From Saccostrea cucullata (Eukaryota): 64,000 nucleotides of DNA. This document shows, piece after piece, positions 14,680-54,664 of this stretch. Below the pieces are notes generated by a model. That model saw only the letters and a list, made by a program, of their open reading frames with translations, was not told the origin of the DNA and searched no databases. The stretch covers positions 62,001-126,000 of the forward strand of contig NW_026929220.1 in assembly GCF_032062105.1 (NCBI RefSeq), given 5' to 3'. The position numbers and the translations under genes are program-made. Each line of letters begins with the position of its first letter. The first letter of the stretch is position 1.

Positions 14680-16158
14680 CTCATCAAAATGTTTACTTTG
14701 TATGCCTTTGATATGCCAAGGAGCAGAGAAAAACTTTCAAAGAAATAATGCATTTTCACTACACATTCAAAACATCCCCACCCTTACACCAAAACCCATG
14801 ACACATGGTAATGAATTTTAACAGCCTTGGAAGAGGTACCCCATCATCATCATAGCTCTTCTCATAGTTGATTTTCAAAGAATTAACAGATTTTCACTTG
14901 ATTATCAACACCCCCATGAGAAACAAATCCCCTCATCCAAGGATCATGAATTTAAAAAAAATTAGAAACACAAGAAACCATGACCTGGGGGCCATGAAAT
15001 TCACAATTTTAAAAGAGGCACTCTTGTTCATCATAAGCATAATTAAGTTCGTTTGTTTAATACCCAGGTGCAGAGTAGAGGATTATCAAAAAAAAATTGA
15101 TACACATTCGCAATTTTTAAGATATAGCCCCACCTTAGCACTAGAGCTCTTGATCCTTGGGCAATAAAATTTACAAATTAAGAAGAGGCTCACTTGCTCA
15201 TCATAACTGTGTACTTAGTTTGTTAAATATCCAGAAGAAGAGATTGTGATTTTCATAGAATAATGCATTTTCACTTTCTGATTAGTATAGTCCCACCCTG
15301 GCACTAGAACCCTTGACCCTGGTGCCATGAATTTCACAATTTTAGACGAGACACTCTTGCCTATCATTGATATGTAGTTTGTTTGTCCATTTGATACCGA
15401 GGACCAGAAGAGTAGATGTTCAAAGAAATCATGCATTTTTAATGCATAGTGAATAGAGCCCTGTCCTTGAATCCTGACCAAGGTGCCCTGAATTTTACAA
15501 TTTTGGAAGAGGGTCGCCATATTCATGATAACTATGTAGTTAGTTTGTTTGTTTAATACCCAGGAGCAGAGAATAAGATTTTCAAAGAGTTGTTTTATTT
15601 TCAGTATATAATCAATTGAGCCCCCATCCTTTCCACAAGAACCTATGGCCCAGGGGCAATAAAATTCACAACTTCTCATCATAGCTACATAATTAGTTAT
15701 TTTAGTTGATACCCAGGAGCAGAAGATGAAATTTTCAAGGAATTGATGCACTTTCACAATATTATCGCTAGAGCCCCACCCTAACTTTGGAACCCCTGAC
15801 CCCGGGTCCATGAATTTTTATAATTTTGACTGAGGCCTCAATGCTTATTACAATCATGCCGGCAGTTTGACTGCGTGATGTCAAATAGTGAAGAAAAAGA
15901 TTTATAAAGGTTGAATTGATTTTGGTGGTTTTTGCCCCGCCTCTCATGTCCGAGGGGGGCAGAGACCATGAAATTCACAATTTCTATTCCTCTTAACCCA
16001 TAGATGAACTATGCCAAAGCTGGCTGAAATTGGGTAAGTGGTTCCAGAGAAGATGCAAAATATGTTCAAAAGGTCAGACCGACGAACGACAGACGACGCA
16101 CGACGAAGGACGAAAACAGATAGCAATATGTCACCTGAATGTCTTAGATGACCTAAAA
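14680..16158 (-). mobile_element. Helentron-associated non-autonomous element (HINE-type) with degenerate ~165-170-bp central satellite array
   Basis: Reverse-complement homolog of 40411-42304: 5' end TTAGGTCA...GGTGACATATTGCTATC plus (CGT/GTCC)-type microsatellite at 16070-16158, and tandem monomers at ~14980-15860. Confidence 0.75.
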
Positions 16159-19882: not shown

Positions 19883-22800
19883 ATGCAGATTTTAATTCTC
19901 TTTATTTTGCCGGCTGTCTTTGGGGCATCTGGTAAGTATTTTTATGAAAGAAATGAAAACAAACCATTTTTGAAATTGTGCTGATATGTCGTTTGAATTT
20001 AATCATACTTTTTTCAGTTCCCGAAAAAAGATTGCTCTTTGACAGTAAGTATTAATAACTGCACTAATGATATTGTCAAGATTCACATAATTTGCTGACA
20101 ATGTAAATTGCTTTTTTAAACATCATTTAATTTTATGATAATGTTGTATAATTTTGCTAAAAAAATAAAGAAAAAATAACTATAGTCTGAAAACAACATA
20201 GAATATTCACATCTTTTTTCAGCAAAAAGAGTCAAAAGGAATGAACAATATATTAATTCTTCGTTTTGACATTTTTTTAATATTCAAAGTCTAATAACTA
20301 GAACACTTTTTTCATATTAAGTCTCAATCATATATTTTTCTCCATTTTGAGTCTAACCCAATATGTTTTTCCCAACTTCTAAAGACCATCTGGATATACA
20401 CCGTTACTTTATTTTCCTTTTTTGTAGAAATACATGTATTAATCATTCATGAAGAACAATTTCTATAATTTTTTTCCAAATTCAGCCTTTCTTAATGGGG
20501 AAGAGGCCAGACATCTAGTTGATCAACTGGTGGAGTTACTTGCTACAGATGACAACGAGGTTAAATGTGAATCACATTGTCACACACTCATTGCAAACCA
20601 ACAGTCGGTTATGCAGCATTTATGTCCCTTCCTGTGTCACTCGTAAGTAGTAAAAACCATCAAAAGTCTTCATTTCAAATTCGATGGAGAAAAAAAAATT
20701 AAATTTTCTGATACGTGCTAGTGAGAAGAATTTTGAAGTTTTTACCACTTTTTTTATATACTGTAGACGTACTTTTTTTTCCAAGGGGTCATAATTCAGC
20801 GGAATCTCAATTTCTGTTAAATTTGCAGGAAGAAAATTACGCTGATTTTCTAGATTGTCTCTATATGCCTTAGTTTTAAATTAGGTACGCTTGGACACAT
20901 TTCCGCGGAAAATTTGTGACCGCGTACATAGCGTAAATTAATACCACGCGGAAAAAAGTACTTCTACAGTAGTCAAATTACATCGACATATCCATGGTAC
21001 TCAAGTTATCAGTATTCATTCAGATGATAAATTTCCACTTCAAATCATAATGAAAGAGAGTTGTCATTTTCTTCACTTGTTCACGGAAAACAATTACTTA
21101 TCGTGCAAATAACTCACGTTTTCATAATTTTCTACTTTCCTTAGAGCCCAAAATGCACTGAACCACTTACATAGCCCAAACACAGACCCAACTGTTACAG
21201 GAAAACGTCTTGTCCTCGATAGTAAGTTTGCTTATCATGTTTTAATTACCTTTTCTCATGTACTTGAAGCCATAAGAGTGTATGGAATATATACCTAGTG
21301 GATCTTCACAAAGGATTACAATTTACTTGAATCTCTTTATTAGTACCCTACCGATGAAAACGGAGGGGATTATTTATTTCCTCTGCTTCTGTCTTTACGT
21401 TCGTCCGTCTGTCTGTCCAAGTGTTTGTTTGTCAAGCTGTCCTACTTCTACTTGTTTTTTCCGCTTTTTTTTCTAAACGTTTGCAGACATTCAGCTGTAT
21501 TGTTGTATGTGAATGTAACTTTATAAGTTACATATCAATATTAAAATGTTGTTTCGCTACATTGATTTTTGATAGAATGATGGGATTTTAATTTTTCGTA
21601 ATGGTTTTAGATCGGTTCATGCTGCGCCAAATTCCGATGGTCAACATGATAAATATGAAGTGATAAAAGACATTGAAAAATGAGTTGAATTTTCGTCTTG
21701 ATGTGGTTCATTTCTTATATATGTTATATGCATGCACAATCACAATTTTCACATCAAGCAGATAAACTTGTTCATATCTTTTGCATATTATAAAATGACA
21801 CTCTAAAGAAAAAAGGGACCCGGTAGGGGATGTTTATTGCTTGTGCAATACTCTCAAAATGCTTGTTCTTCTCGCAGACTTCTTAAACACAGCAGAGACA
21901 GCTCATCTTGTAGACCAGCTGGTGGCTAACCTGGGAACAGACGAGAACGAGGCTGCCTGCGAGAAAGAGTGTCACGTGCTTATTCGAGATTCTACATCTG
22001 TTTTCCAACATATGTGTCCTTTCTTGTGTCACTCGTATGTGATTTTTTATAGTCATCTTTAAATTGTCTTTTTCTTTTATCATTCTTTAATGTTACACAT
22101 CTTTAATCTTAAATATTGTATCGTTGTAACAAATACAATGATAATATTGTTTTTAATATTTCTTACATTGGTAAAATTGAACAAAAAGTGATACCTAAAG
22201 GTTAAAGGAGCAGTCGCATCATCTCGGGTCATAGGTTGGAAAAGCAACCTCGAATGTATAAAATGTATAAAAATTCATACATTTCCTGTTTATTCAGTAT
22301 AGGATTGAAGGAGTTTGAAGTCCTTTCTTTAGTATATTTTAGGTAATATAATTACATTGAATACACTTTAACTCAATATTCCATAGATAAAAGGTCTACG
22401 TGCATTTATTTCAAAGATCGTGAAAGGTGGATTGTCATGGCATCTACGTAATACATTCAAGGTTGTTTTACCTCTAGTCTTAAAGGCCCTAGATGTTGCC
22501 ATTGCTTAGGGAGTATTATACCTTCATTTTTGGTTTTGAATAGCCATTTATTTATCGTTTTCAAATAGCGCTCAAGCTGTCATTAACAGCATCCATCACA
22601 CACCAAGTGGATCTCCCACAAAAAGATTTTTGGTCGACAGTAAGTGACTGATTTTTTATGGATTTTATTCACGTTATAAAAAAAATGTTTTAAGATCGTC
22701 TATATATAAGTAAAAAACACTCAAATGTGACGTAAAACAGCATACATCCAATCATCAATCTCTCTGTTTTAGCCCTTTTGGCAAACCCAGAGGTCAATGT

Positions 22801-24542
22801 CCTAGTAACAGGTTTGGTGGATGTCCTTGGATCGGACCCAACAGAGCAGCAATGTGAGAGAGAATGTGTCGTACTGATGCACGCCGATAATGTTCTTCAC
22901 CATCTTTGTCCGTTTGTCTGTCATTCGTATGTTTGTTTTTTAATCATTTAATTACATGTTATGCCGTGGTGTCAAAACTAACAAAAAGAATTATCAATAG
23001 TGAAAACTTTTATTTTTGTACAACGCAGGAATTGATTGTTTTCTGTAACAGATTATCCTTTCAATATTTCTGCGCTGAATTTTATTCTAAAAAAAATAGT
23101 ATTCTCCTAAAGATGATATATCCCAGTGGCTTCATTTTTGTGCTGCGCAGATATATAGAATGTAACTCATAATCGAAGTGGATTTATTAAAAGTAATAAC
23201 ACCTAGCGTAATAAATAAAAAAAAATAATTCTTGTGTGATCCTTTTTTTCAACTATCTATGAATCATATATATGAAGTTTTTTGTTAATTCATGTGTCAA
23301 TTTTTATGCATAGTATTTCATGTTAAGTCTTCTTTTTTTGCTTTTAAGATTCCAGCAGTTGGTATCTAAGATCCATTTGAATGCACCAGCATCCAACCCA
23401 TCTAAAAGATTTCTTGTTGATAGTAAGTATATAGAGTAAATCAAATATCGTTTTCAAATAGTCAATTCCACAAAAATAAGTCAAAACGCTACTCTGTGAA
23501 CTGATATGCTCTTGGTGACAGTTTTTACAAGCATATAAATGTTTAAGAAAAACGTGTGGAACAAATATATATACTAGTAAGTAAAATTGGAATAAAAAGG
23601 GGTCAAACGTCTCAGTGACATAGACGAAATATGTTAAATTGGCTTCGTATCAAACATGTTTGGTTTTTTTTCCATTTTAAGGACATACGCAAGGTACCTT
23701 CCCTACTGATAATGTTTCAAGATATTTTTGATTTAAGATTATTGTGCCATCAGATGTTCATAGATAAAAAAATCAGTATGCGTTGCCAGGGTTTTTTGGA
23801 AGATATCAAATTATGAAAATTTTTGCATTATTCAAAGAAAGATATATAAAAAATTACAAAACAAAATTTGTTTTAGAAGAAGTGTACAAATCCATATATA
23901 GACATTAAAAGTACTGCACACAGGTCCTTAATTTAGTAGAACTCTTCAACTCCAGGGAAGAACCCAATAAAGTTCAAGCTACGTTGCGTATGACCTTAAG
24001 GACGATATGCAGATTGTAATAATCATCAATATTTTTTCTTAAAATTTACATATATATCATTTTTGTAGCCCTCCTTCACAACAACCCTGATGTCGCCGTC
24101 CTTGTGAACACATTGGTCCAGACTCTAGGATCAGACCCCACAGAGGCTGCCTGTGAGTCCAAGTGTACCGTCGTCGTACACGCCGACAACTTCATGCACT
24201 ACCTTTGTCCTCTGGTTTGCCACTCGTACGTATTCTGTTCATCCCTGTGCCAGATTTTAGATTTTGATCAATAAAAAAATAAATAAAAGATGCTTCTCTG
24301 AAAGCATATACCCGAAAAATATCTGTATTTTAATGCTTACATATTTTGTTTTAATTTTTTTTTCATTTAAGAATTTATGTTAAAAAATATTGCATGCAAT
24401 CTAAGAAGATTTAGAGACAAGAAATCCATTTACATGTAACTTCAAAGATTTTTTTTTCATTTTTAAATTCATTTCTATCTATAGATTCCAGTCATTGGTT
24501 CAGAAGATACACATAGATGCTCCATCTGGTTCTGTGAAATGA
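19883..24542 (+). CDS. Gene 2: complete secreted 4-domain KR-cleaved Cys/His-rich polyprotein precursor (326 aa)
   Basis: Exons 19883-19931 (MQILILFILPAVFGAS, signal-peptide-like), 20018-20044 (VPEKRLLFD), 20486-20642, 21145-21221, 21878-22034, 22569-22639, 22773-22926, 23349-23422, 24069-24225, 24485-24542 (FQSLVQKIHIDAPSGSVK*). All borders are AG/GT; total 981 nt in one open frame; AATAAA at 24596. Confidence 0.92.
20759..20971. mobile_element. Short MITE in a gene 2 intron
   Basis: TACTGTAGACGTACTTTTTT...AAAAAAGTACTTCTACAGTA inverted termini. Confidence 0.65.
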
Positions 24543-32254: not shown

Positions 32255-35200
32255 ATGAAGTTTTTAATTTTATTCTGTCTTCCTGCAGTTTTTGGGGCAG
32301 CTGGTGGGTGATTTGTCGCCTAAAAAATGAATTCATTCGAATAAAAATAACGTGATTTGATTTGGACATATCATTTTACTTATACTACTTATTTTACCTC
32401 TTTTTCAGTTCCACAAAAGAGAGTTCTCTTTGACAGTGAGTAGGATTTTCCATTTTTTTTTTATAACACACTTTGGGAAAAGTTAAAACACTCTCCTTTT
32501 TAGTAGTTTTTAATAGATATCTAGTACTGAATCAAGAAAGATTTAGAGGAAAAATAATGTAAAAGTTTCAGAGTTTCAGAAAAATAAGATGTGACCCATG
32601 GAAAGCACCATAGAATTATCGTATGTGGCAGGTATTTCTGTCACAAAACTTGAAGAGTTTAGATGAATTTCGATAAAAGAAAATATGACACTACTGTAAA
32701 AGTGAAATGTCAGTAAGACGCACATTTAGCGAATTCTACTTCAAAATTGATATTTATATTGATATGTAGCTTCAGCATTTTGAAAATGCTTCGAAAGAAG
32801 CTATTTATTTTATTCATAAAAAAAATTATTTACAAAGTGAATGGAATTGAGCATCAGGCAAATCCTATTTAGCTCTCTCCCCCCAAGGTCAAGATGAACA
32901 CATACAATATATAGGTATGAAAGTAAATAGACAAAAACGCTATAAATAATTGCAAATAACAAAAAAGGGATTTTTAGCGATATTCAATTTTAGCAATCTC
33001 TCAGCACCCTCGCTAATAATGCCAAAATTAAATTCTCGCTTTAAAATGCACTTAAACGTTTTTTTGTTGCTGTTGTTTTTTAAAGGACCCTTTTTAAAGT
33101 AGTTCATGTGCACTTTTTGTATGTTTTACCTTATTTACCTTTATTTGAATTTTCGACAATTGAATTCTTCTCCTCCAAAATTAGATTTGGTAGGCTATCA
33201 AATTTTTTGCTCAAAACTTACTTGCAGCTAAAAATTCAAGAAATGTTTTTACGTTAATTGTGAATTATATTGTGTAAATCACACAAACTTTTGCGTAAGC
33301 ATACTTATCATGGATATATCATTCTGCTCTGATTAAGAGTAGTACCTACGTTATCCATGAAAGGGTCTATTGTAAAGTGAATTATAAACTCATTGGTTAA
33401 TATACAGAATGTATGATTTCTTTCAACAGCATTTTTGAATGGTCCTGAGGCACAGCATGTAGTCAATCAATTAGTCACATTTCTTACCACTGAGGACAAC
33501 GAGGCCAAATGTGAACAAGAGTGCCACGTCCTCATCGCTAACCAGCAGTCTTTAGTGCAGCATTTGTGCCCATTTATGTGCCGAGCGTAAGTAAAATGCT
33601 ATATGAACACATTTACATTTTTTATGATTGAATACAACTCTTTCGGGTATTTTCTTAATCTACAACTTTACATTGCTCCAGGACTGTGTCATCTGAAAAA
33701 AAAGTATTTTCTAAATTATGCTTCAATACTTGGTTAAAAAAAAACCTGTTTTCACCGCCCAAGAGTTTATCTTTATAGCAGTTACGAGGAAGATATTTTA
33801 TACGTACAAATACAATATAACGATTGAAAAATGAAAGGATATTCTTATTTTCTATAGATAATGATTTAAAAAAGAACAATAATCCCTTATGATATATCAT
33901 TTTTTTCAGCTTTTCTCAATGGGGAGGAGGCTAGACGTCTGGTTGATCAGCTGGTGGAGGTACTAGCTACAGATGATAACGAGGTTAAATGTGAATCACA
34001 TTGTCACACCCTTATTGCAAACCAACAGTCGGTTATGCAGCATTTATGTCCCTTCCTGTGTCACTCGTAAGTCAAACCCAAGACCTTAAATTTTATCTAA
34101 ACTTTTTTTGTTTTCTGGAATAAAATTACTAGGTGCTTTTGGTGCCAAATTCGGCCTCGTGTTCAAATGAAATGAATATTTCCTCAAAATTCTTTCAGAG
34201 TGCCTATATTTTCAATTAATAACTCTACCAAGATTAATAAATATTTATTATCATTGAAAAAAGTACCATAGTTTATGTGAGGAAAGCGGTACTTTGGCGT
34301 TGCCTTATTCGTTGATAAATCCACCATACATGTATAATTCAAGAGGTTTATCAAATCTCATTTCCGGAAATGCACATTGAGACGTCCAGGTGATAGCATA
34401 AAATGACCATGCTAGTTCAATCGATTTTTCTTAAATAAAGAAACATCTTTTAATTATCTGGAATTATTTTTGGATTTGATTTTTAAAAATCTGAAAAAGG
34501 AGATGGGCGTATTTGGCATGTGATCTGCAGGAATCATTTGTACGAAACATTTATGATTTGAATGTCCATGATTTGGTTGGCTGACGATACATATAGCTGG
34601 TCAAATTTTAAAAACTGCCATAGGGTTTTTTAAAGTTAAGTTTGAAATACCTTGATAGATTGTAACATTTATGACCTTTTATATTAGGAGGTACAATAAC
34701 ACAGTAATGCTTCATCGAAAAAAAAAAATGAACACCAATTAGATAAACTAGGCATATATGATAAATGTACATCAGTGCTCATGTACATCAAAGTTTAAGT
34801 AGAATAGAAGATTGGATTTGATTTCGCTCTCGGTGCAACAGAACCAAAATTTATCTAATTCAAAATTTTGATAAATCAGTATATAAAACGAACCTGACTA
34901 AAGAATTGACTTTTGTATTTAATAAAAATAAATAATGCCCCATCGAGACTCGAACCAAAAAAAATATTCACCTATAGTGCAATGCGCAGGTAGCCCATGT
35001 TACTGAGCTATTGCCGTTACACGATTAGTGCATTTTAAAAAGAAAAAGAAGCACCACATTTCCACAGCTGTAATTTTTGGGAAAAATGATTTTTTTTATG
35101 GTCCCTGGGTCTTCTCTCCATTTTTTTTTTTTATAAATGTATGTTCGTTTCTTTGAATTAAAATGCACACAAAAAACGTTTCAAAATCATAGAGAGTGAG

Positions 35201-37631
35201 AATGAAATTAGAAAAGCGTGTTTTAAAATGTACAATTTTGTACGAAATGTCTGATCTAGCCAATTTTCAAGTTAGTTCGTAGCAAATCAAAACTCACTTA
35301 CTGGAAAATATTTTTCTTTCCCATTTCACAGGAACCCGATTAATAAAAAAATGTTAAAATTTCATGTGACACGACGATAAAATTTTCACTTTTATGTATT
35401 TTGCTGAATGCCAATATTTAGTTAAACATGCAAAATGTTTATAGCCCTTTTTTCGACTTCGTTTGTAAACTTTTGTATCGAAATGTAACATATTAAAAGA
35501 AATGTTACTTTTTTCTTGCAGTTTTGTATAGCATCTGTTAATTATGATCATTGAATTTGTGTGTATACATGTACGTGAACATATATCATTATATACATGT
35601 ATGGTCTTCCGATTTTAGGCTTTCACATATTTTTAGATTTCATTTTCAAAACCCACAGTTTACTTCTTCTCCGTTGGTACTTACCATTACTTTTCCTTGA
35701 CTTGATTAACAAATAAGAACACCTCTATTAACCTATTAAAACATTTAATTTCCGTTTCGATTTTTAACGATTTTTCCGGATATACGCATTTCGTATTTTG
35801 ACACTATAAATAGAATACGTGTAACAGTCACATTCTAAAAGTTATGGTTCATATTTTATTTTTAAGCAAGGAGATTTCCGACATTTATATTCTATGTAAG
35901 GATCTAATTCAGCGTAAATATCATTATTTGAAAATTCCCTGGGCCAATTATTTTACCAAAGCACCTTATATCAGATCTAATTTATCCTTCATAGTCATTC
36001 CTTATATTTTCCTTAGTGCTCAGACTGCTTTGGCTAACCTACACAGCCCTAACACAGACCCCACTGCCACCGGAAAGCGTCTGGTCCTCGACAGTAAGCA
36101 CTTTGGACTTTCAAATATTTTTCTCTCTCGTTCTGTTCTGACACGTATTAATAATTATACAGCAAAAATAAACTCAGTTATTTGGGGGAAAATGAACATT
36201 TTTTTATTACTAGATTGGTCTTTTTGTAGCTTTCTTGAACACCCAGGAAACTGCCCATCTAGTTGACCAGTTGGTTGCTACTCTTGGCTCTGATGAAAGC
36301 GAGGCTGCATGTGAGAAAGAATGTCACGTGTTAATCAGAGACTCAACTTCCGTTTTCCAACACATGTGCCCATTCTTGTGTCACTCGTAAGTGAAAAAAA
36401 TACCCATAGGAAAATTTCTATACACCAAGATTATGTAATAAATACAACATAAAGTTAAAAAGTTTTGCTTTTGTCCCCAACTGTAAAGTCAGACAAGTGA
36501 ACTCTTAAATGTTTGATGCATAACAAAGCTCAATTTAATTACGTTGATTTCATGATAGATGTTCTGTTTCAGAGCTCAAGCTATTATTAACAGGGGACAC
36601 ACCACTACCCCTCCACCTGCCAAACGCTTAGTTTTGGACAGTAAGTTTTAAAATTACTTTTTGTATGATCAATATGTATCTAAACTACAGTATTGTAATA
36701 TACATAGGCTAGAAAAAAAATTTCGCTGGTGAAGAGTTCATGTTTATAATATTTTAAAAACTGACTTTCCAGTAAATAATTTTCAAATAAAAGAAAGACA
36801 AACATGGTTGTCCATTTTAAATATTAATGACTAAAACCAATTTTTTATCCAATCAAATGACGCGTTACAACCAAAATTTTTTTAACAGCTTTCCTGAACA
36901 CCCAGGAGACAGCTCACCTAGTTGATCAGTTGGTCGCTACCCTTGGTGCTGATGAAACCGAGGCTGCATGTGAAAAAGAATGTCACGTGTTGATCAGAGA
37001 CTCAACTTCCGTCTTTCAGCACATGTGTCCATTCTTGTGTCACTCGTAAGTAATTAAAATTAAAGAAAGGTCAATCTGTTTGCTCATCCAGAGACATTCA
37101 AAACAAATAACATAAGGCGATCTTTAACAATTGTTTGGTTGCCTTCTGACAAGTTACTGACTAAAATTTAAAAAAAAAACTTCCTTTTTTATTTAAAGTC
37201 ATTCATCTATTTAAAGTCTTTTCATTATATTCGTCTTATCCCGTCGACAAAGATGTAAAACTTTTCTAGAAAAAAAAATTCCTTAGCCTACCTTTTGCCC
37301 TAATAATTTTACCCAGAGTAAGGAGAGGGCAAAAAATCATTATTTTAAAGATGACGTTAGCCTCAAGTTTTAAAATAGTCAATTTTTATTGTTTCACATC
37401 AATGCTGTATAAAAATTGCTTACCGTTATTGACTAAGAAAAAGTAATACATGTTTCAGTGTTTCCAGATACTTTTCCAGTCACTGTAAATTTTATATATT
37501 CTTGAGTGAACTCTTACTGATGATTCTGCTGGAATGAGTTCTGTTTATTTCCTTTTTGTTATAGAGCTCAAGCTATTTTTAACAAAGGACAAACCACTAC
37601 CGCTGCTGCAGTAAAGCGTTCGAATCTTTAA
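32255..37631 (+). CDS. Gene 3: secreted 3-domain KR-cleaved Cys/His-rich polyprotein precursor (252 aa) with two alternative first-domain exons
   Basis: Exons 32255-32303 (MKFLILFCLPAVFGAA), 32409-32435 (VPQKRVLFD), then either 33430-33586 or 33910-34066, then 36017-36093, 36230-36386, 36573-36640, 36889-37045, 37565-37632 (AQAIFNKGQTTTAAAVKRSNL*, TAA 37629-37631). 759 nt open frame with either alternative exon. Probable 3'UTR exon from 37789 with AATAAA at 37887. Confidence 0.88.
33430..33586 (+). CDS. Gene 3 alternative domain exon 4a
   Basis: 157 nt, cag|...|gtaag; TFLNGPEAQHVVNQLVTFLTTEDNEAKCEQECHVLIANQQSLVQHLCPFMCRA, all four Cys intact. Confidence 0.8.
33910..34066 (+). CDS. Gene 3 alternative domain exon 4b
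   Basis: 157 nt, cag|...|gtaag; TFLNGEEARRLVDQLVEVLATDDNEVKCESHCHTLIANQQSVMQHLCPFLCHS, nearly identical to gene 2 exon 20486-20642. Confidence 0.8.
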
Positions 37632-38534: not shown

Positions 38535-40390
38535 TATATTGGATTCCGAAACTTCATAAGAATCCATACAAACAAAGATACATTGCAGCTTCCAGTTAAT
38601 GTTCAATCAAGCCTCTTTCTTTACTTCTAGCTAAGATATTGACAGTAGTGAAGGGAAAACTTCAAGAGTACTGTGCAACAGTATATTCAAGAAGTAGTGT
38701 GAATCAGATGTGGATACTCAAAAGAACTTTTGTACAATTTGAAATCACAAGATTTTACCAAAATCAACAGCGACTTTTAAACTTTATACACAACTATTTC
38801 CCACGATAAATTAAAGTCCAGGCTATTTGATATTATTAACAACTGCTTTTTCAAAAATTAATTGGACTCTTGAATTTAGTTACTTGGTCATTGGTCATTT
38901 TCAAAATTATTTTGTTAAAACACATTCTGATTGCAAACACAAGTACTCTGCAGTTGACATCAAAAAGATGTTTGAGTTTCTGATTGACAATATCCATGTG
39001 GTTGTGGAGACCAGGTCCTCCAACAATCCATTGGAATTCCCATGGATACGAATTGTCCTCTATTATTAGCAGACATGTATTGTATTCATATGAAGCATAA
39101 TTTGTGCAAATCTTGTGCGTGAAAAGAAGAAATCACTTGCTGAACAATTCTATATTTAGATTTATTTTATAGCTAATAAATAGTCTCTAATAAAATACTG
39201 CCTAAACTCTAGAGAATTTTAGCGTTCAATATTTTTACGTTTTATTGATCGTTGAATTTGTATTACGTATACGAGTATGTCCAAAACATTCTGAATACGA
39301 GCGTTCAATATTGAACCGTTGTAAACAAAAAAAGTCGTCTGGTCAAATTTTCAGAGCCAAATTAAAGAAAAGAAGTGGCATCTGAGTAAGATGTTTTATT
39401 TTTTACAAATTAAATATGTATTAGACTCATTAAAACCTAAATAAGCAAATCATAACGCTCGGTATGGTCATCGGAATGATACGATATTGAACACTTACAG
39501 CACAGGCGTTAATTTCAATACTAAAAAATCATTAATATGAGTGATTTTTTTAGTTGGAATAATTATCATTTGTTTTAACTATATAATAAAGGAGTTATTG
39601 AGCTTATATTGGTGAATATTGGCAAGCTCGTGCATTTGTACAGCCAACTTGTGCCAATATTCACCAATACAAGTTTAAGATCCCTATAATATCAACGACG
39701 TATTGTCAATAAACGATGTTAATTTCCTTTCCTATGTCGATACGATATATCCTTGTGAGCTTGAGATGAAAGATATCAAAGATCTAGAGTCTGACGCATC
39801 TGCTTCATACTTGGATATTTTACTTAAAAGACGTTAATGGTAATCTAACAACCAAGCTCCATGATAAACGTGGTGACTTTAACATTTCTATTGTCAACTT
39901 TCCTCATTTATGCAGCAATATATCTCAATCACCTGCATACGACCTTTACCTATATCAGTTGATTCGATACGCAAGAGCATGCTCTACATATGAACAATTT
40001 CTAAAACGAGGTAAATTATTGACAAACAAGTTGAAGAAACAAGAATATCAGCAGTCTCGTTTAAAGTCATCATTTCGTAAAGTCTTTGATCGATACAATG
40101 ACCTTGTCAGCAAATACAGCTTATCATTGAGTCAATTGCTGACTGACGTTTTTCATACTAATTGTTCGTCCATTATTTATACATTGAATTGACGACGGAT
40201 TTTTCCGTTATTTGTCGATCATGAAAAGGAGCAAGCGGCGAGTGTGACCGGTCAGCAGGGGATGCTCACTCCTCCATGGCACCTGATCCAACCTCTGATG
40301 CTTTAGACGTCAGTGTTTGCTCTGAACTTATTTCATATTGTTTTATGGTCTTTGATATTGAATACTGTTCGCTATCCCCATATCCTTCAT
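38535..40390 (+). mobile_element. Penelope-like retroelement RT (degenerate, interrupted at ~39150-39690) with 3' tail
   Basis: YWIPKLHKNPYKQRYIA, YSRS.VNQMWILK, TLYTTI.HDKLKSRL, FLIDNI, GIPM.TNC, IYP.ELE.KD, ASYLDI, DKR.DFN.SIVNFP, and LIRYARACSTYEQFLKRGKLLTNKL (ORF 39959-40192); many frameshifts. Confidence 0.8.
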
Positions 40391-40410: not shown

Positions 40411-41138
40411 TTTAGGTCATGTGACCTATTGCTACCTGCTTTCGTCCGTCGTCGTGCGGTGTGCGTCGTGCTTCGTGCGTCGTGTGTTAACATTTGAACA
40501 TTTTTAGCTTCTTCTCTGCAACCACTCAACCGATTTCCACCAAATTCAGCATAAAGAATCTATAGGTCAAGGGAAACAAAAATTATGAATTTCATGGTCC
40601 CTGCCCCCCTGGGGCCTGAGGGGTGGGGCAAAAACCACTAAAATTAATGCAATCTTTAAAAATCTTCTTCTTTACTCCTGGACATCAAGCAGTCAAACTG
40701 TTAGCATGAATGTAATGACCATTGAGTCTTCTACCAAAATTGTGAAATTCATGGCCCCGGGTCCAGAGGTTCTAGTGCTAGGGCAGGGCTCTATTGATGA
40801 TATAGTGAAAATGCATTATTTCTTTCAAAATCTTCTTCTCTGCTCCTGGGTTTTAAATAATCTTACTAAGTACATAATTATGATGAGAAAGTATGCCTCT
40901 TTCCAAAATTGTGAATTTTATGGCCCTGGGGTCAGGGGTTCTGGTGTTAGGGCGGGGCTCTATTATGATTATAGAGAGAAAATGCAGAAATTCTTTGAAA
41001 ATCTTCTTCTCTGTTCCTGGGTATTAAACAAACTAACTAAGTATATAGTTATGATAAGCAAGAATGTCTCTTCCAAAATTGTGAATTTTATTGCCCCAGG
41101 GTCAGGGGTTCTGGTGTTAGGGCGGGGCTCTATTGATT

Positions 41139-41180
<42 letters not shown>

Positions 41181-42304
41181 GCTCCTGGGTTTTAAACAAA
41201 CTAACTAAGTATATAGTTATGATGAGGAAGAATGCCTCTTCCAAAATTGTGAATTTTATGGCCCCAGGGTCAGGGGTTCAGGTGTTAGGACGGGGCTCTA
41301 TAATGATTATATAGTGAAAATGCAGAAATTCTTTGAGAATCTTCTTCTCTGCTCATGGGTATTAAAGAAACTAGCTAAGTATATAGTTATGATGAGGAAG
41401 AATGCCTCTTCCAAAATTGTTAATTTTATGGCCCCAGGGTCAGGGGTTCTGGTGTTAGTGGGTGCTCTATTGATTATATGGTGAAAATGCATTATTTCTT
41501 TCAAAATCTTCTTCTCTGCTCCTGGGTATTAAACAAACTAACTAAGTACATAGTTATGATGAGGAAGAATGCCTCTTCCAAAATTGTGAATTTTATGGCC
41601 CCAGGGTCAGGGGTTCTGGTGTTAGGGCGGGGCTCTATTGATTATACTGTGAAAATACATTACATCTTTGAAAATCTTCTTCTCTGCTCCTGGATATTAA
41701 ATAAACTAACTAAGTACATAATTATGATTAGGAAGAATGCCTCTTCGGAGATTGTGAATTTTATGACCCCAGGACAAGGGGTTCCGGTGTTAGGGTGGGT
41801 CTCTATTGATTATATAGAGAAAATGCAGAAATTCTTTGAAAATCTTCTTCTCTGCTCCTTGGTATTAAGCAGATGAAGTACCAACATACCTATGATGAGC
41901 AACAGTCATTCTTCGTGAATTGTGAATTTCAAGGCCCCTGGGTCAAGGGTACCATGGGGGCGGTCTACTTATATACTGAAAATGAATTAATTGATTGAAA
42001 TCCCTCCTTGATATTGATTAAACATTTTTGATAAGTAAGGGTGCCTTTTCCAAACTCGTGAAGAGTCAGGGGTTTATGTGTGGTTGTGGCACTACTGAAA
42101 ATGGATTTTTTTGTTCCCCTAGTCTGTCTATGGGTATTAAGTAACCAAAGTAAGCATGCTAAGTGTATAGTTATGATAAGCAATGGTGCCTCTTTCAAAA
42201 TTGTGAATGCCATGACATCTAATTTAAAACATAAACCAAATTCAATCGTTGGAAAGTTGTTGCATGATGCTCAGGTGTCCTATAAGGCCCATGGGCCTCT
42301 TGTT
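40411..42304 (+). mobile_element. HINE/Helentron non-autonomous element with ~7 tandem 167-170-bp satellite monomers (Cg170-like)
   Basis: 5' TTAGGTCA..TGACCTATTGC, (CGT/GTCC) microsatellite, monomers starting CCAAAATTGTGAA at 40734, 40903, 41073, 41241, 41411 and 41578; 3' palindrome GGCCCATGGGCC followed by TCTTGTT at ~42286-42304. Confidence 0.85.
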
Positions 42305-45240: not shown

Positions 45241-47095
45241 AAAAGAAATGCAGCTGGAAAATTCAGTCTAAGTCTGTTTCATAAACCTGGGGCCTGATCT
45301 TCAAATAGATTGCTGTAAATTGGATGGGAACTTATTGTGCTTCCAAGCTGACCCGATATTATTTACAGGAAGCAGACTTTATTCAAAAACTTTTACATCA
45401 TCAGAAGAAGATAGCATTTGATTTGACCTTCATCTCGAAATTTAGATATGTCGGTATTATATAATCAATTCACAATAGCTACTTTTATTCAAATATTGAA
45501 CATGTTGAACTTAAAGTGAAAGTCTTGAAACCACAAACTATTATAAAAAAGAAAAAAAATCCTTTTATCAAATGCTTCACACATAGCTTTGACATATTTT
45601 AAATATATCATTTGTGAGTATACACAATTTGACATTATCACTTTTTACATATACTGAGTACACGATCTAAATTCACATGATAACAATTTCATAATAATAC
45701 ATGTAACAAGCATCTACTTTAAAAGGAGTAAATAGGATTGACATAACTATTTTATAACATTTCCTTTAGTACATAAAATAAATTATTATTTTTATTTTAA
45801 TACAATACGTATCTTGCGACAGTTGTTTCTTCTACATTATTGTAAATTGCTCAGTCTAAGTAGATAAAAAAAATCATGATTAAGTGGATAATGCAAAATA
45901 GAACGTAATTCATAACTAATCACATTCACAAAAGTAACACATATAATCAAAAATTAATTTGTTTCAACCTTATTCACATAACGACAAAATGCATTTGTTT
46001 AATCAGTCAGATAAATAAAAACCCAAACTCATGTAATCTGTATTTTAAACATAGTATTTATAAAGAATAATCTTGCATTATTTAAATATGTAACGTGTGG
46101 TCTGAAGTATGTGTTCCAATATCATCGAGACCAAAATTTTCACCCCTATTGTTCACCTACTGTGTTAAAATGAAAGAGAAGAAATTAATGATAAATATTT
46201 CCGTATGCTAGTAAAGCATGATTACATTTTCCTTGTCACAGCTTTTCAATGCCCATTATATGACATCTATTGTACATTTCAACAGAAACTACTGTTTTAT
46301 TGTAATGTTCGTACAAAGCATAACACATTAGAGGCATTTTAGCTCAATATTAATTTTTGTGTGATCAAGCAGCCATTGGTTGATGAAGCTTGATTAGAAC
46401 TACGAACCGTGGTTTGGGACTATGGTAAATCAGGCAATTTTATTTAGAATAATTTCTAGTATGTTTTCTGATATGTTACTTTATTTCCGACATTACTTCC
46501 TTGTATTCCAGAATCTTAGATCTTCTAAATAAACTGTCACTACTTCTACATGCATTCAAAATTCTTTTTGTTCTCTCTAGAACAGAAACGCCCATCTTAT
46601 CTAAATCAGCATGGTTTTCTTCACTCCTCCACTTCCCAAACCAAGGGTAACTTCCCAGCTCAGACCTAGCAATCGCATCAGCCCCCAACTCTAGCAGAAG
46701 CCTCACTTTCTCGACTCTGTCATTAGTAAAAACATCATCAATCACTGTATGGTGCAGTGGTCTTATATCAGATTCACTAAAAGCCCATTCCCCCTTGTAC
46801 ACATGTATCAGCTGATCTTTATCTAAACCAACACAGAGAAGATGATTCAAAACACAAGAGTTCTCACGTACAATTGCTTTCCACCAACTTCCACCCATTT
46901 CCATATGCCTGACCCGTCTTTTTCTCACTACCACATTATCCTGACTGTCTGCCATTACATCAGTATTTCGTATGTCAACAAGGATGTTAAATAGGTGTAA
47001 ATTAACATCTTTTAGTTATGTGTGATTCAATTAACGGATTTATTACGTTTACTCTGTTCATTACTATTTCTCAATAAAGTGTGGATACATTGATA

Positions 47096-48268
47096 TCAAC
47101 TTTTTTGTTCAAAGCATGCACCATTTTCAGTTAGGATTTTTAAAACAGAGGGATTATGTAATGATGCAATCATAATTGGCGTCTCGCTTTTCATATTTGG
47201 CAAATCAACAACAGACCCGGATTTTATTAGCATTTTTACTACAAGTGTATGTCCACCCCTACAAGCTGCTGTAAGCGGTGTGTCATATTTACCCTGTTGA
47301 TTGACATCTGCCCCAACTTTAATTAGTTCCTCAACAATGCGTAAAAGTCCTTCTTTACTAGCCATAACTAATGGTGCAGACCAACTTTCTGCTGCACCTC
47401 CCTGATTGAGTAAGGCACCAATTTTACTTACATACTGCAACATTATTTGTAAAGTTTCCACATCACCACTCAAACAACTAAGAAGAAATAACCGTTTCTT
47501 TTCTCTCTGGTACTCTTTTGATTTCCTCATCAAACGCACCAAAGCTTGGAAACGATTTTCAAGAAAGATCACCGACTGTATCTCTCTGTGACTTTTGGTT
47601 TGGTCTATAATGTACTGCAGAATTTGATGATGTCCATAGTAAATGACCCAGCTGATCACCCTAAAAGTGCTCGTAAAATTTTTGCGTTTTAGTGATCTAG
47701 TATAGTTGATACCCATCAAGAGATTTACATGTTTAAATCTACATGATGTTTTCCAACTACTCAACGAATTTCCAATTTCTTCCTGCTCTGACCTCATGAA
47801 ATCTTTGTTCGACTTTCCTTGGACAAATGTCTTAACCTCATCAAAGAATTTTTCAGCATGAACACCATGAATTTGATCCAAAAACAAAGACTTTAATTCT
47901 CTATAATCTTTTCTCTTTAACACTTCAATAAAAGCCTGACACACCCCCTGATGTTTCAGAGCATCATTCATGAACACGTTATACAAGTCCATTCTTTCTA
48001 CATCTCTGTATAACCTCTCAGCTAACATTGAGTTCTGACTCTCATTATGTAATCTTATGCACAAATCAAAAGGATTTTCAGCCTTCTGAAACATGTCTTT
48101 TGTTTCCTTATTCCAGGGTTTCACACAGTTAGCAATATAAGTACTGTTCATATATTTTAACATTTGCTCGGGAAACTGCTTACCATAGTGATAAGCACAT
48201 ATTTCAAAGATAGAATCATGAATAAATGTGTACTCTGTCCCCTTTAGTTTTGTGTATGTCCCCGTCAT
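47096..48268 (-). CDS. Ankyrin-repeat-containing segment of the disabled HEPN-STAND-ANK gene
   Basis: 390-aa ORF with several ankyrin repeats, in frame with 48586-48359 across a TAA. Confidence 0.7.
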   Translation of the reverse strand: MTGTYTKLKGTEYTFIHDSIFEICAYHYGKQFPEQMLKYMNSTYIANCVKPWNKETKDMFQKAENPFDLCIRLHNESQNSMLAERLYRDVERMDLYNVFMNDALKHQGVCQAFIEVLKRKDYRELKSLFLDQIHGVHAEKFFDEVKTFVQGKSNKDFMRSEQEEIGNSLSSWKTSCRFKHVNLLMGINYTRSLKRKNFTSTFRVISWVIYYGHHQILQYIIDQTKSHREIQSVIFLENRFQALVRLMRKSKEYQREKKRLFLLSCLSGDVETLQIMLQYVSKIGALLNQGGAAESWSAPLVMASKEGLLRIVEELIKVGADVNQQGKYDTPLTAACRGGHTLVVKMLIKSGSVVDLPNMKSETPIMIASLHNPSVLKILTENGACFEQKS

Positions 48269-48609
48269 TGCTAACGACGCACTGCCGAATTTGAAAGTAT
48301 CAAAGTTGTTTTCTAATTTACAACTTTTTAAAACATCATTTTTAATGCTTGTTAAAGTTTAATTTTCTTGATCTCTTAAACATCCTTCTGAGATATGACC
48401 TCCATTCATCATACACAAAACAAGTGATCCATAATCAATTTCTTTCTCTCTTTGCATTTTGTCAAATTTACGACGGATACATGGAAGTGGTGAGATAAAA
48501 GAATTTAAACCAAAAGATGAAAATTCTGCTTGTCTTGAATAGAATTTGCAAAGAAGAGGAAACATACGAGAAACGGACGCGAGCAATGAAGGAGACAGTA
48601 GCTCGGTAT

Positions 48610-49124
48610 CTAACCATACTTTTTGAACAACAACTTTTTATCATTTTCATCTAATGCATTTTCAGTATCATGAAGCTTAATGACATTTTCCTCCTTTGTG
48701 AAAAAGGATTCATAAGGATTCATAAGGGCCTCGTTAAATACATTCTCTCTGCAAGTCATTAAAGTAATGGATTTATCCATACATGGATTTTCAATGAATT
48801 GTTGACATTCTGTCAAAAAATATAATTTTGCTTTCTCAAGGCCAAGAAGACCGACTACATCATCAATGACAAAGACCTGAGGATTTTTTGAGTCAGAGTA
48901 TTCCTCTATCTGTTTGATATGTTTTATTGGTACGACTTGGTATCCTTCTTCTGCGAGTTTGAGAGCGATGTAATGAGCTGTTGCTGATTTTCCGGATCCG
49001 GAGACACCAACAAATGTCACAAAGTGTTTAGTTTTTACCTTTTCCATCATTGAGGGGAAACTGTGGGTTTCTTGATACATGGAACATTCAACTTTCCATT
49101 CTTTTAACTTATCCTTATGTTGGA
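48610..49124 (-). CDS. STAND (nSTAND3-like) NTPase segment of the disabled gene
   Basis: FVTFVGVSGSGKSATAHYIALKL, VFVIDDVVG, LMTCRE; ends at the frameshift. Confidence 0.7.
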
Positions 49125-50174
49125 CTGAAAGAAACATAAAGTATTCAGAATTCATAATATTTTTTACTACAAATCATCAAAAGATAATTTATTATTGTCA
49201 CTATGATCAAGGATATGTCCTCTTAAGGACCCTCTCTACACATGTGCAAATTTTTTTTTTGGACTTTGAGAAAACGTCATTGTATAAAGGAGTTAATATT
49301 GAGCTTATTTATTTAGTTTTCAATGTATGATGCGTGGCATTTACCTCCGGGAAAAATGTTCAAAGACAACACTGTATCAGTGAATAGAAATCGCTGTTAA
49401 TTACTTCAATAGAGAAAATACATGTCATTAACACGTTCAGTTGATTTATCTTGGCCTTTAAAAATGTTGAGATTACTTGAATTTATTACAAATTTAAATT
49501 GAGTGATATTGTGTAAATTTTTATTTTTTAGAATTTAGATCTAAGGGCAGATCACTCTAACTGCAGAAAAATACCTTAGAATCAGCACTCTTTAGTGCGC
49601 AGTGTAGAGAGGGTTCTTAAATCAAATAAGGAAATTATACTAAACCTATAGAAAGCATGCCAAGGCCATTACATATATCAATTCTATGCCATTCAACGCA
49701 CATGGTGCTTCGAAATAATAAAACAAGAAAAACTTTCACTTCGGCTAAAATTACGTATATCTAAATGAATACAGTAATACAGACATTTGAGTTAGGTGAG
49801 CTAAAAGATAAAGCAAGATTCATTCTTTTTCGTAGTACGTTTGTAAGTCTAAAGTGAATATTATGTAAATTCACAATTCATACCTTTGACACTTGTTGGA
49901 ATGCGAGAATGCCTGAATGAAACTATGTCATCTATAAAAGAATATTTTAGAGTTACCTATTTCTGGATAATCAGTTCTATAAACTATAAAATTGAATTTA
50001 GAAATAAAGATGAATTGTCTGAAGCATAAATTGTTGAATTAAGGGCGTTTTTGTGATTTAAACCATGCTTTCATCTGAAATGAGATGAGTACATGTATTA
50101 TTTAATTTTTTTAACACAATGTCATGTCTGACAAAGGCGAAATTTTTACTTTAATGACTCTCTTCTTCTATTAT

Positions 50175-50700
50175 TTTTGTTTGCTGTTTAACGTCACTCT
50201 CAACTTTTTATTCATACAGAGACGCCACCACTTGCCGGTGGAGAACTACAAATTTTGACATTTACTCCTCACTCAGGTCCATTGAGCAGTGGAGTTTGTT
50301 TTTCGTGCCAGCACTTACTGCGATATGGGACTTCAATTTTTACAGTCTCATCCAAATGATCGGTCTCTACGTTCCATTCACAGATATGTAGGGCAGACGC
50401 TCTTACCACTGCGTCATGCAGGCGACTTAACTATCTTTAAATAGCAATTAAATGACCCAAGATGAAGGGGAACAATGTTGTAGTTTTATTTTTAAACTGG
50501 AATATATAAGGTTCGAGTTTGTGCTGGAATGATTGTATATTATTTCACGTCCCATTCAAAAATTGTCACTCATATTGAGACGTCACAATATACCGGTGAA
50601 ATGCTTCGAATGCTTTACCTTTACGCGGCACTCATGGCCATTGGGCAATGAGGGGTCTTTTTCGTGCCGCTGCCTGTCGTGACACGGGCAACTTTCAATT
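50175..50700 (-). mobile_element. Two SINE-like fragments
   Basis: Mutually similar segments (TTTAACGTC/TTTCACGTC...GAGACG.CAC...CCGGTG...GCCATTG.GCA.TG...TTTCGTGCC) at 50180-50430 and 50540-50700. Confidence 0.5.
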
Positions 50701-50719
50701 TGAAGAAACAGTTTTTTAT

Positions 50720-50925
50720 CGACTTACGTCATTCTCGGCTGAGATTATTTACCGATCATGACAAGGAGCACAGGGCGGATGTGACTGGTCAGCAGGGGAT
50801 GCTCACTCCTCCAAGGCACTTGTTCCCACCTCTGATGATTCAGAGGTCCGTGTTTGCTCTGTTCCTATTTTATATTGTTTTATGGACTTTGAGATTGAAT
50901 ACTGTTCGTTAACTCCATCTCGTTA
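50720..50925 (+). mobile_element. Penelope-like 3' tail
   Basis: GATCATGACAAGGAGCAC...GGTCAGCAGGGGATGCTCACTCCTCC...TGGACTTTGAGATTGAATACTGTTCGTT. Confidence 0.75.
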
Positions 50926-51075
50926 TTCAAACTCATGATCTCCCGATCACGGAGCGATCGCTCTACAGACTAAAATATCGTGAATGAAACAATTGTGCTT
51001 GAAAGAAAACGACAAAATCTAAATTATCTGGTATGTTTCTGCACGACTTTAACAATTTTTACCCAGTCTGATATT

Positions 51076-51232
51076 TAAGGAATCACTGTCTAGTTAGGAG
51101 AGTATGCCAGGGCATCAACAACAGTGGGAAACATGGGATAATTAGCATAACGGGCGAATGCTAAAATTATCCCATGTTTCCCACTATTGTTGATGCCCTG
51201 TCATACTCTCCTTACTAGACAGTGATTCCTTA
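51076..51232. repeat. Long inverted repeat (hairpin, ~72-bp arms)
   Basis: TAAGGAATCACTGTCTAGT..GGAGAGTATG..AGGGCATCAACAA.AGTGGGAAACATGGGATAATT...AATTATCCCATGTTTCCCACT.TTGTTGATGCCCTG.CATACTCTCC..ACTAGACAGTGATTCCTTA. Confidence 0.9.
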
Positions 51233-52754
51233 TATTTCCATTTTTACTTTAAATAACTTAAAATAATTCGAAATACCGCCTAATTCAGTAGATTTGAAAT
51301 GCATGAGGCCCCATGATGTCAAATTTTACCATAAAAATAGTCCCATAAAAACACGAAACAAATTTATTGATTATTTAGTTACTGTAGTCAAATATCAACA
51401 TTTACAAAATAAACAACAAAAGAATTTTAAATTATGATCAAAGTAATCTTGTTAACATTAATTATATATGTGACCTAGATTTAAATTGTCGGAAGAACAA
51501 ACATATATAGGCCCTAGGTCACTTCTCCGCCACCATACTGAATGCATGTTGCAGTTGATGAAACGGGAGTTGGTCAGCATGGTCAGGAAACAGATTTGTG
51601 TGGATGTTAATATAGCAGAGGAAGTTGAGTTGCTTAAGAAGTCGGATGGTAATGACTGATGAGGGACGATGTCTGTATTAGATGATGGAGAGCAGATCTA
51701 AGTGGCAATGCCGATTTCTCCACGTGGTTCAGATGGGATGTTTACCATGTGTTTACGGAAGTGAAGTTTTAGGTCTCGCGAGGCCTCGGTGAAAGTGGAC
51801 AGCGTTGCGCTAGTGACTTGCTTTTGATCCGAAGAGGATTCATTATTTATTTTTTTTGTTAAAAGATATATCATATCTAATTACTTAGTAAACAATTAAA
51901 CAAAACATTTTTTTTTCTTCAGTGTATTTATACACCACACATATACATGCAGGTTGACATTTGACCTTTCAGTAGTATTTCAATAGAGAAATTTACATGC
52001 CACAGGAATCACGGAGAAATTAACAAGCTTCACTTACGTAGTGTTTATCATAGGGAAAACAATTGGAAATGGAAATATTAAAGTGTAATTTAAAGTGAAA
52101 TGTTAAGATACAATACCACTTATTTCCTGTACTTTATCCTCTGTTTTCGAAATTCGCATAGTATTATCTTCCACTGTTCCTACAAAATTTTCAAAAAATG
52201 TATATTTTACTCTTTCAGGATTTGGAATTTGGGTATACAACAACAAACAATACTTACACGGTAATGATTATGAAAACTGCATCATTCAAAACTTGAAGTC
52301 TTGCGGATATATTTTGTGTATATAAAAAGATGAAGGTAAGAATTAATAACGATACTAAAGATTGGATGAACATAACATGTATCAGTGAAATTTTACAAAA
52401 AAAATGAATTAAAAATTATGACAGATTTTAAGTCCTCAAAAGCAATTCTCATCTTTGTTTTATTTCAGTAACTGGTGTTGATGATGGATCTTGAAGTATT
52501 TTATATGTACAGGTTAATACGGTAAATCAATTTTTATTTGCAAGAACTTTAGTTTTGCGTAATTACTGTCTGCTCCCAAAAATTTCATTCTCGAGTATAT
52601 AAGTATTCTCAATAATTTATGGGACAATAACAGCAATTCGTAACTTGTCACGCTTATTAAGACTTGAGAACTCCCTCGCCAAGAAAATGTGTCGCAAAAA
52701 TATAGTGATCTACAGTCTTTATTACTAATTGTTAGTCCTCTGTTTTCGAAACTG

Positions 52755-52950
52755 TTGACGACAGATTTTTCCATTATTTCACGATTGTGACAAGGAGCAC
52801 ACGGCGGGTGTGACCGGTCAGCAGGGGATGCTCACTCCTCCATGGCACCTGATCCTCTGATGTTTCGGAGGTCCGTGTTTGCTCTGCTCCTATTTTGTAT
52901 TGTTTTATGGACTTTGAGATTGAATACTGTTCGTTATCTCCATATTTTTA
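52755..52950 (+). mobile_element. Penelope-like 3' tail
   Basis: Near-identical to 60270-60410 plus 61030-61080. Confidence 0.8.
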
Positions 52951-54048
52951 TCTTAACAGTTATTGTTTATTTAAAACTAAAGCCCTCACATAGGGCATGC
53001 TCCTTTCTCTGGAATTTTGTACGCCCCGTTTGAGAAACATGGGTAAATAGTGATGGGGATGTCCGTCTGTTAGACCCGTAGTTAACGGGGCACCCATCTC
53101 TAAACCACAACTCCTCTTATACATGTACCACCGAATGAAATAACAAGATACAGTTTCAGTACAAATTAAGCCATTCCTTTTTTTTTAAAAAAATATGAAC
53201 TGATATAAGAAGATACAATAAATTCTTTCTGAATCATAGGAATTCCATCCAGTAAGAACACACAAATCGTTTTTTGATCTCCTAAATGCTAATTGTAACG
53301 TCAAAGTTGCAGAGGATATCAATTTTCAGTGGAATTTTCTTTCAGAAAACATACTCTGCCACCGTCGCCCACTAAGATTTTGAGGTATTTGTTTTTATAT
53401 AGCAGTTTACATAATATATCAAAAAATGAAGTGGGTGACGATGACAGACAATATTTTTTAAAAGAAAATAAACATAGAAATGAGTCATTCTGAGGCTTTT
53501 TTGCATTAAACTTCCTTTAGCATTAATCCAGAATGCCCCCCCCCCCTTCATGCCATATTCTTTAATGATGTATCATATTCATCTACTCAACCATTTTTAA
53601 AGCCAATTTCATTATTTTTTAAGAACATTAATTTTTAGGGCACAATTAAAGCCCATACCGTACTTTCTTCTTTATTGAGACTTTCAGAGAATCCTTTTTA
53701 CACAGTACTCTAACGTTTTGATTGGACACATTTTTCTGCTTTCCAATAGCCAAACGTAGACACTGCAATTTTCTCTATAATATTTAAGGGTATTATCTCT
53801 TATCTACCTCTTTACCACAAAATGAAATCTTTATCTGTAAAGATTCTTTCTCATAAAGTATTATAGTACACTTCCTATTTCACTTATTTCTGACACTTTT
53901 TTCAAGTCTCCAAGACCAAAACAAGGACTTTGTCATTGAAATAATATGGTAGGCAGGAGGAGTGAGCTCGGTGCTTACAGCGCCTCCATTTTGGATAGAT
54001 ATCAAGAACTTTTATTGAAAATTGCTAAATAAAATTATGATAACTTAC

Positions 54049-54664
54049 TTTCAAGCTCGACAAGCATTTCCCTTGTCTTTCTATCATTTTCAAATTGTTT
54101 TCTCAGTTCCTCTTGATAATGTAGGTCCCATATAGGATCCATTGTTTCATAAAGGAGAAAATCGACATCTTTTGCATAATCAGTAATGAATGCGTTGTCT
54201 AGATTTTTAATTGCCAGTCTTAGTGTCTTCCAGATAGACGAAAACTCTGAATTGGAGAGAAGCGAACTTGAAGAATGCCCGCATTGATTCCTGGCTAAAT
54301 GGATCCTTTCTATATTAGCAGAGACAAACCTGTCAGAAGGATCTGGATTTTTACCCCATCCTCTAGAGGGAGGTGGCAGGCTACAGATATTTCGCAATAT
54401 TGTGTACAAAAGCGAAATGTCCATATCATCATAATTTCCAGTATATTGTCCACAATTTGGTAAAACAAGGTCTCTCTGATTTGGTAATAAACGAGGAGAA
54501 TTTCCTGTTCTAATACTTTGTTGCAGGGTGTGAGTTAATGTCGAAGGAGGAACTTTATTGCGTAGAACATCACGGAATTCATCTGTACACGGACCTAGGA
54601 GAAGTCGGCATACTCTGCTGGCATTTGTCGTCTCCTCTGTCGATAAGTATGCGCAGGTGGCCAT
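54049..54664 (-). CDS. Intact DZIP3-like HEPN domain exon of the HEPN-STAND-ANK gene
   Basis: ORF 54035-54664; acceptor TTTTACCTGCAG upstream (exon starts 54678); donor GAA A|GTAAGT at 54049/54048. Confidence 0.8.

Follow-up and report, generated by a model that had tools for sequence, protein, structure and literature searches.

We analysed a window of 64,000 nucleotides from the oyster Saccostrea cucullata (assembly GCF_032062105.1, contig NW_026929220.1, positions 62,001 to 126,000), which contains a gene, called gene B here, for a precursor with four repeated units. The DNA around it is animal-type and AT-rich (GC content about 0.3). Gene B has 10 exons between 19883 and 24542 on the plus strand, and their splicing gives a 326-aa protein identical to the annotated P0006, which NCBI names 'uncharacterized protein LOC134280155 [Saccostrea cucullata]'. 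When AG/GT sets within 4 bases of the estimated exon boundaries were tried, exactly one gave this protein. Gene B is one intact oyster gene, and the four repeats are its core exons.

The product begins with a hydrophobic leader, judged by eye to be a likely signal peptide, followed by a short pro-segment with a terminal Lys-Arg (KR) and by four units with KR between them. Units 1-4 measure 76, 74, 74 and 75 residues between these sites. We infer that they enter the secretory pathway and that a convertase cuts the precursor into units of about 8 kDa. Each unit is encoded by a core exon (phase 1 to 2) and a tail exon (phase 2 to 1), phases that let the pair be duplicated in frame.

The initial annotation, made without database searches, had placed at 20486-24225 a repeated module consisting of an amphipathic segment, a turn, C-x3-C, a spacer and C-P-x-x-C-H-S. 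All these elements are present on the plus strand in the four core exons; the interval covers the repeats but stops short of both leader exons and of the final coding exon. The turns of units 1-4 read ATDDNE, GTDENE, GSDPTE and GSDPTE, and the spacers have 14, 14, 13 and 13 residues, as the announced 13-14. A second amphipathic segment is encoded by the exon after each core exon. Unit 4 departs from the described H(L/M)CP motif, reading H-Y-L-C-P, and the two segments quoted as examples, EVNVLVTSLVATL and FQQLVSKVHL, lie outside this interval, being encoded in the neighbouring paralogue (3697-3849, 3368-3445). The excess of D/E over K/R was correctly perceived, with D+E to K+R counts per predicted mature unit of 10:2, 9:2, 8:2 and 7:2 (7:3 counting the C-terminal Lys). 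These units hold 7, 6, 5 and 5 His, and their calculated charge goes from -8.5 to -4.5 at pH 8.1 and is about zero at pH 5. The strict motif C-x3-C-x13/14-C-P-x2-C matches the window 14 times and none of its 20 base-shuffled versions.

Gene B is the middle gene of a tandem cluster with paralogue A, a decayed remnant and paralogue C (Table 1), and two protein searches of its own genome gave at least 16 and at least 15 matches, all within this cluster. Purifying selection on the units is strong. Nonsynonymous divergence (dN) among paralogous core exons is 0-0.24, and in the 5 of 11 pairs where synonymous divergence (dS) is measurable (0.06-1.50) dN/dS is 0-0.11, the synonymous sites of the other 6 pairs being saturated. 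Identity across oyster genera is 74%.

In paralogue A one cassette of core plus tail was recently duplicated in tandem (3462-4637 and 4666-5873, 91.8% over 1209 bases), the core exons differing at synonymous sites only; the annotated P0003 includes just one of the two copies. The remnant has lost the fourth Cys and the 5' half of its core exon. No tail exon was found between cores 1 and 2 of paralogue C (33588-33909), where the S. echinata counterpart P0009 has one; either splicing would have to leave out the first core, or the gene is defective or wrongly assembled at this point.

Table 1. Exons of gene B and the other members of its cluster, in window positions
Feature	Position	Strand	Remark
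Gene B exon 1, ATG and hydrophobic leader	19883..19931	+	only AG/GT set tried that reproduces P0006
Gene B exon 2, short pro-segment, first KR, start of unit 1	20018..20044	+	splicing to P0006
Core exon unit 1, helix A, ATDDNE turn, C-x3-C-x14-C-x3-C, phase 1 to 2	20486..20642	+	
Tail exon unit 1, C-terminal amphipathic helix, Ser/Thr/Pro linker, KR, phase 2 to 1	21145..21221	+	
Core exon unit 2	21878..22034	+	
Tail exon unit 2, with KR	22569..22639	+	
Core exon unit 3 (unit used for structure prediction)	22773..22926	+	
Tail exon unit 3, with KR	23349..23422	+	
Core exon unit 4	24069..24225	+	
Last coding exon, with stop codon; AATAAA downstream at 24596	24485..24542	+	
Paralogue A (P0003, 485 aa, six annotated units)	571..6863	+	starts upstream of the window at L017:9127
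Decayed remnant of a last unit	12964..13658	+	70-73% DNA identity to the end of gene B
Paralogue C, leader and four core exons	32255..37625	+	

Range and conservation of the family

A profile built from 14 core exons matched 26 proteins in a word-indexed search, whose named hosts are oysters, Mytilus, Mactra, Ruditapes and Mercenaria. A search of 1.84 billion representatives gave 80 matches at E up to 0.001, 4 of which were discarded as chance. Both searches combined yield 94 proteins with 219 units, 200 of them distinct. When 20 distant matches were looked up, 14 belonged to molluscs (Argopecten, Mizuhopecten, Ylistrum, Solemya, Sinanodonta, Mya, Mercenaria, two of Haliotis, Patella, two of Littorina, Pomacea and Babylonia), 5 had no name and 1 was labelled E. 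coli; beyond the molluscs sampled in this way, the range may be wider. The E. coli-labelled P0143, from a 659-base contig, looks like a mollusc member and is likely a contamination.

No Pfam family covers the units in scans of the members, and no published description was found by identifier or motif in the literature covered, which is without most subscription journals. All named records seen are 'uncharacterized' or 'hypothetical'. The family, of secreted-type helical mini-proteins with an architecture of a known kind, is real and apparently undescribed. It is conserved in bivalves and in gastropods, where purifying selection has acted on it and its units have been amplified repeatedly. Expressing such small units is easy, and their function is thus directly testable.

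Precursors contain 1 to 9 units, with lineage-specific amplification to 7-9 copies. In a unit tree of the named proteins plus six unnamed ones (a short alignment with weak deep nodes), units of the same lineage mostly cluster (oysters, scallops, Solemya, Babylonia, Littorina P0078), and thus multi-unit precursors likely arose several times. Such a repeated rise in copy number by duplication of the two-exon cassette fits a product needed in bulk. P0026, which combines EF-hand repeats with a complete precursor whose leader lies inside the protein, is probably a fused gene model.

Nearly all units are net acidic (144 of 147 from 44 proteins, with a median charge of -6 and a median of 5 His, a few segments still including the leader or several units). 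The best-kept residues other than Cys, numbered by alignment column, are G25 (79%), D27 (89%), E30 (91%), E34 (94%), P53 (83%) and Q60 (86%), and His reaches at most 62% at any column. The clustering of His beside Cys that the initial annotation pointed out is enriched in oysters but is not family-wide: His is found at all three Cys-flanking columns (38, 49/50 and 57) in 49 of 67 oyster units and in 14 of 129 units from other hosts.

Complete orthologues fit on Logan contigs of 1.0-1.6 kb, implying that their transcripts are spliced. In the accessible part of a C. virginica study (PMC12040131), LOC111113338 appears in the model tables for gill and for gonad, and LOC111115092 only in those for gonad; the rows shown give no fold change, and LOC111114602 is missing from all these tables; these tables tell little of the main tissue of the family.

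Predicted fold and comparison with known helical proteins

The helical structure claimed earlier agrees with the structure predicted for unit 3, but the model, with three long helices and a short N-terminal one, does not establish the four-helix bundle. Its helices include 30-40 and 45-67, and helix A would pack against the C-terminal part. Two nested disulfides per unit (C1-C4 and C2-C3), as had been proposed, are suggested by the paired loss of Cys across units; in a covariation analysis by mutual information with average product correction (APC-MI), C2-C3 is the top pair and C1-C4 is 12th of the 20 shown. The four Cys of the twin C-x3-C are kept in 180 of 196 units. A third Cys pair, not of C-x2-C form, occurs in 9 of 150 units. 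Since it lies at three different positions in separate lineages, it looks like a gain rather than a loss, and the idea of a 'reduced' saposin is not supported.

Saposin-like proteins (SAPLIPs: prosaposin domains, amoebapores, caenopores, hookworm Ac-SLP-1) have six Cys in three disulfides, starting from a C-x2-C pair in helix 1, whereas our units have four as twin C-x3-C, and the disulfide from helix 1 to the C-terminus is absent in most family members. Moreover, KR sites between units point to convertase processing, while prosaposin is cut by lysosomal proteases. Alignment by hhalign with 11 oyster saposin domains (8 half-domains; a shallow template profile, with an effective sequence number of 2.8) reproduced the suggested correspondence of the (N/D)xTE turn, but at a score of 9.25 (hhalign probability 0.1-0.2%), against a mean of 9.5 and a maximum of 16.6 for shuffled sequences. 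SapB was not among the Pfam matches of 54 members at E up to 1, and the family has no profile similarity to SAPLIPs. As it differs both in the Cys pattern and in the profile tests, we do not file it under SAPLIPs; it may nevertheless work like one, and a saposin-like topology (the saposin fold has 4-5 helices in two leaves) is a weak lead. Aphid bicycle proteins, according to the accessible part of PMC13041983, are also secreted, lineage-specific and multi-copy, with a non-canonical Cys pattern on a saposin-like fold, so that this fold is possible without the sequence pattern and without lipid binding; they differ in their C-Y-C motifs and fast evolution, and convertase-released units are not described there. 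Canonical six-Cys saposin domains exist in at least 3 other places of the S. cucullata genome (13 SapB_1 matches; L021-L032; G000:C15359, C10546, C15415) and the family is thus no replacement for them.

Twin CX3C motifs are also found in small Tim chaperones (Tim8/9/10/13), with nested disulfides on a helical hairpin. These are mitochondrial, with neither leader peptide nor KR precursor, whereas the oyster precursor has a hydrophobic leader and KR sites; the family gave no zf-Tim10_DDP match in Pfam. Cysteine-stabilised alpha/alpha toxins are about 22-30 aa long and fast-evolving, and those of kappa-hefutoxin type block K+ channels by a Lys/aromatic dyad. The family is slow-evolving and found in filter feeders and grazers, with units of about 75 aa, no conserved basic cleavage site beside the hairpin that could give a product below about 30 aa, and mostly 0-3 K/R per oyster unit. 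Kappa-hefutoxin, OmTx and the molluscan conotoxins flf14a-c and vil14a share its four-Cys nested hairpin motif, and plant alpha-hairpinins (MBP-1, EcAMP1, Tk-AMP-X) are defined by C1-X3-C2-Xn-C3-X3-C4 and modular precursors, with a helix-loop-helix, a signal peptide and repeated modules (PMC7191063, accessible part). That motif is present in all four gene B units, and prediction and covariation point to a helix-loop-helix with nested disulfides. However, hairpinins, known for antifungal, antibacterial or trypsin-inhibiting activity, consist of the hairpin alone (33-51 aa in the examples described), while these animal units of 74-76 aa are twice as long, acidic and flanked by extra conserved helices on both sides, and each module is split over two exons, the Tk-AMP-X genes being intronless. 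Given this size and origin, the family is not a member of the alpha-hairpinins, and the kinship once suggested with them or with kappa-hefutoxins is not supported beyond the common motif.

Candidate functions and other features of the region

The units of gene B are likely separated from each other and released from the cell as small helical proteins. We tentatively propose (probability about 0.4) that in mildly acidic surroundings they bind lipids or membranes, as saposin-like proteins do. Near pH 5-6, protonation of His and Glu would remove their net charge of -5 to -8, and the amphipathic helices A and C might then engage lipid, as acidic SAPLIPs do; in the gut, in mucus or in fluid derived from granules, the units could thereby extract or emulsify lipids or lyse microbes. 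Amoebapores are pH-dependent and lyse ingested microbes. Caenopores also lyse ingested microbes, and Ac-SLP-1 shows greater monolayer effects at acidic pH, with no lysis (accessible part of PMC3184995). If acid-activated lipid binding is true, the family would supply farmed oysters, clams, scallops and abalone with a missing effector, for digestion or for host-microbe control, and the saposin fold with a new Cys pattern. It is a more doubtful extension that the family represents a mollusc-specific branch or re-invention of that fold, in which four-Cys, convertase-released lipid-binders, switched by acid and possibly by Zn/Cu, were amplified through the two-exon cassette as a digestive or antimicrobial lysis system of microbe-eating molluscs.

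The same His and Glu could instead chelate Zn or Cu on one face of the hairpin, making the units secreted metal-binding proteins for storage, detoxification or antimicrobial purposes, which would be relevant to metal accumulation by oysters. Oysters accumulate Zn and Cu, most of their units hold the three Cys-flanking His, Glu is at column 34 in 67 of 67, and a hand-drawn helical wheel would group E30, E34, H38, H50, H57 and Q60 on one face. Such binding is nonetheless rather unlikely for the family, as 37 of 129 units outside oysters have none of the three His although 118-119 of the 129 keep D27/E30/E34, no His column exceeds 62%, and units 3 and 4 of gene B themselves carry no His after C2. 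Quite improbable, in turn, is an activity seated in the twin C-x3-C hairpin, of alpha-hairpinin or kappa-hefutoxin type (protease inhibitor, antifungal or channel blocker): motif and modular precursors fit the definition, and such hairpins exist in cone snails (PMC7191063, accessible part), but the flanking helices of the units match the hairpin in conservation, the stretch between the motifs has no conserved Arg/Lys reactive site, some units lack one or the other disulfide, a PDB sequence search gave no hairpinin match at E up to 10, and the family evolves slowly.

Two further explanations, both unlikely, start from the precursor and its copy number. A leader with KR-flanked copies is the layout of a prohormone, pheromones of Aplysia and Euplotes are small acidic disulfide-held helical proteins, and the tree indicates that the order of unit types is kept across oyster genera, all of which would suit waterborne pheromones or neuroendocrine or paracrine ligands. 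A species-specific cue would be ill-served by strong purifying selection and by the identity seen across oyster genera, and identifiers and motifs were not found in the supplements, perhaps incomplete, of a C. gigas ganglion neuropeptide catalogue (PMC8398477; 68,924 characters) and of an S. echinata neuroendocrine study (PMC12564202). The units could otherwise be bulk structural or storage parts of mucus, granules or extracellular matrix that condense near pH 5 and disperse in seawater, having no specific lipid or metal target. The calculated charge, near zero at pH 5 and -5 to -8 at pH 8, and the amplification to 7-9 copies per precursor are consistent with this; the invariant turn and Glu positions and the dN/dS of at most 0.11 suggest a specific surface instead, and one motif and five identifiers were not found in a partial C. 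gigas mucus peptide file (PMC11432763; 4.0 million characters).

Elsewhere in the window, the minus strand of 46479-54697 contains a gene split over several frames with HEPN_DZIP3 (E 2e-24), nSTAND3 NTPase (E 4e-26) and ankyrin repeats, which by these matches is an oyster STAND-type immune-receptor-like gene. A 168-base unit forms a tandem array of 7.2 copies at 40730-41950, with related pieces near 15000-15800; it presumably resembles the Cg170 oyster satellite. A 134-codon frame at 39788-40189 on the plus strand has by eye the look of a retroelement remnant, with no Pfam match over the cut-off. About 23 kb upstream of the window, L019:7214-7993 holds a flavin-containing monooxygenase exon (FMO-like, E 5e-18).
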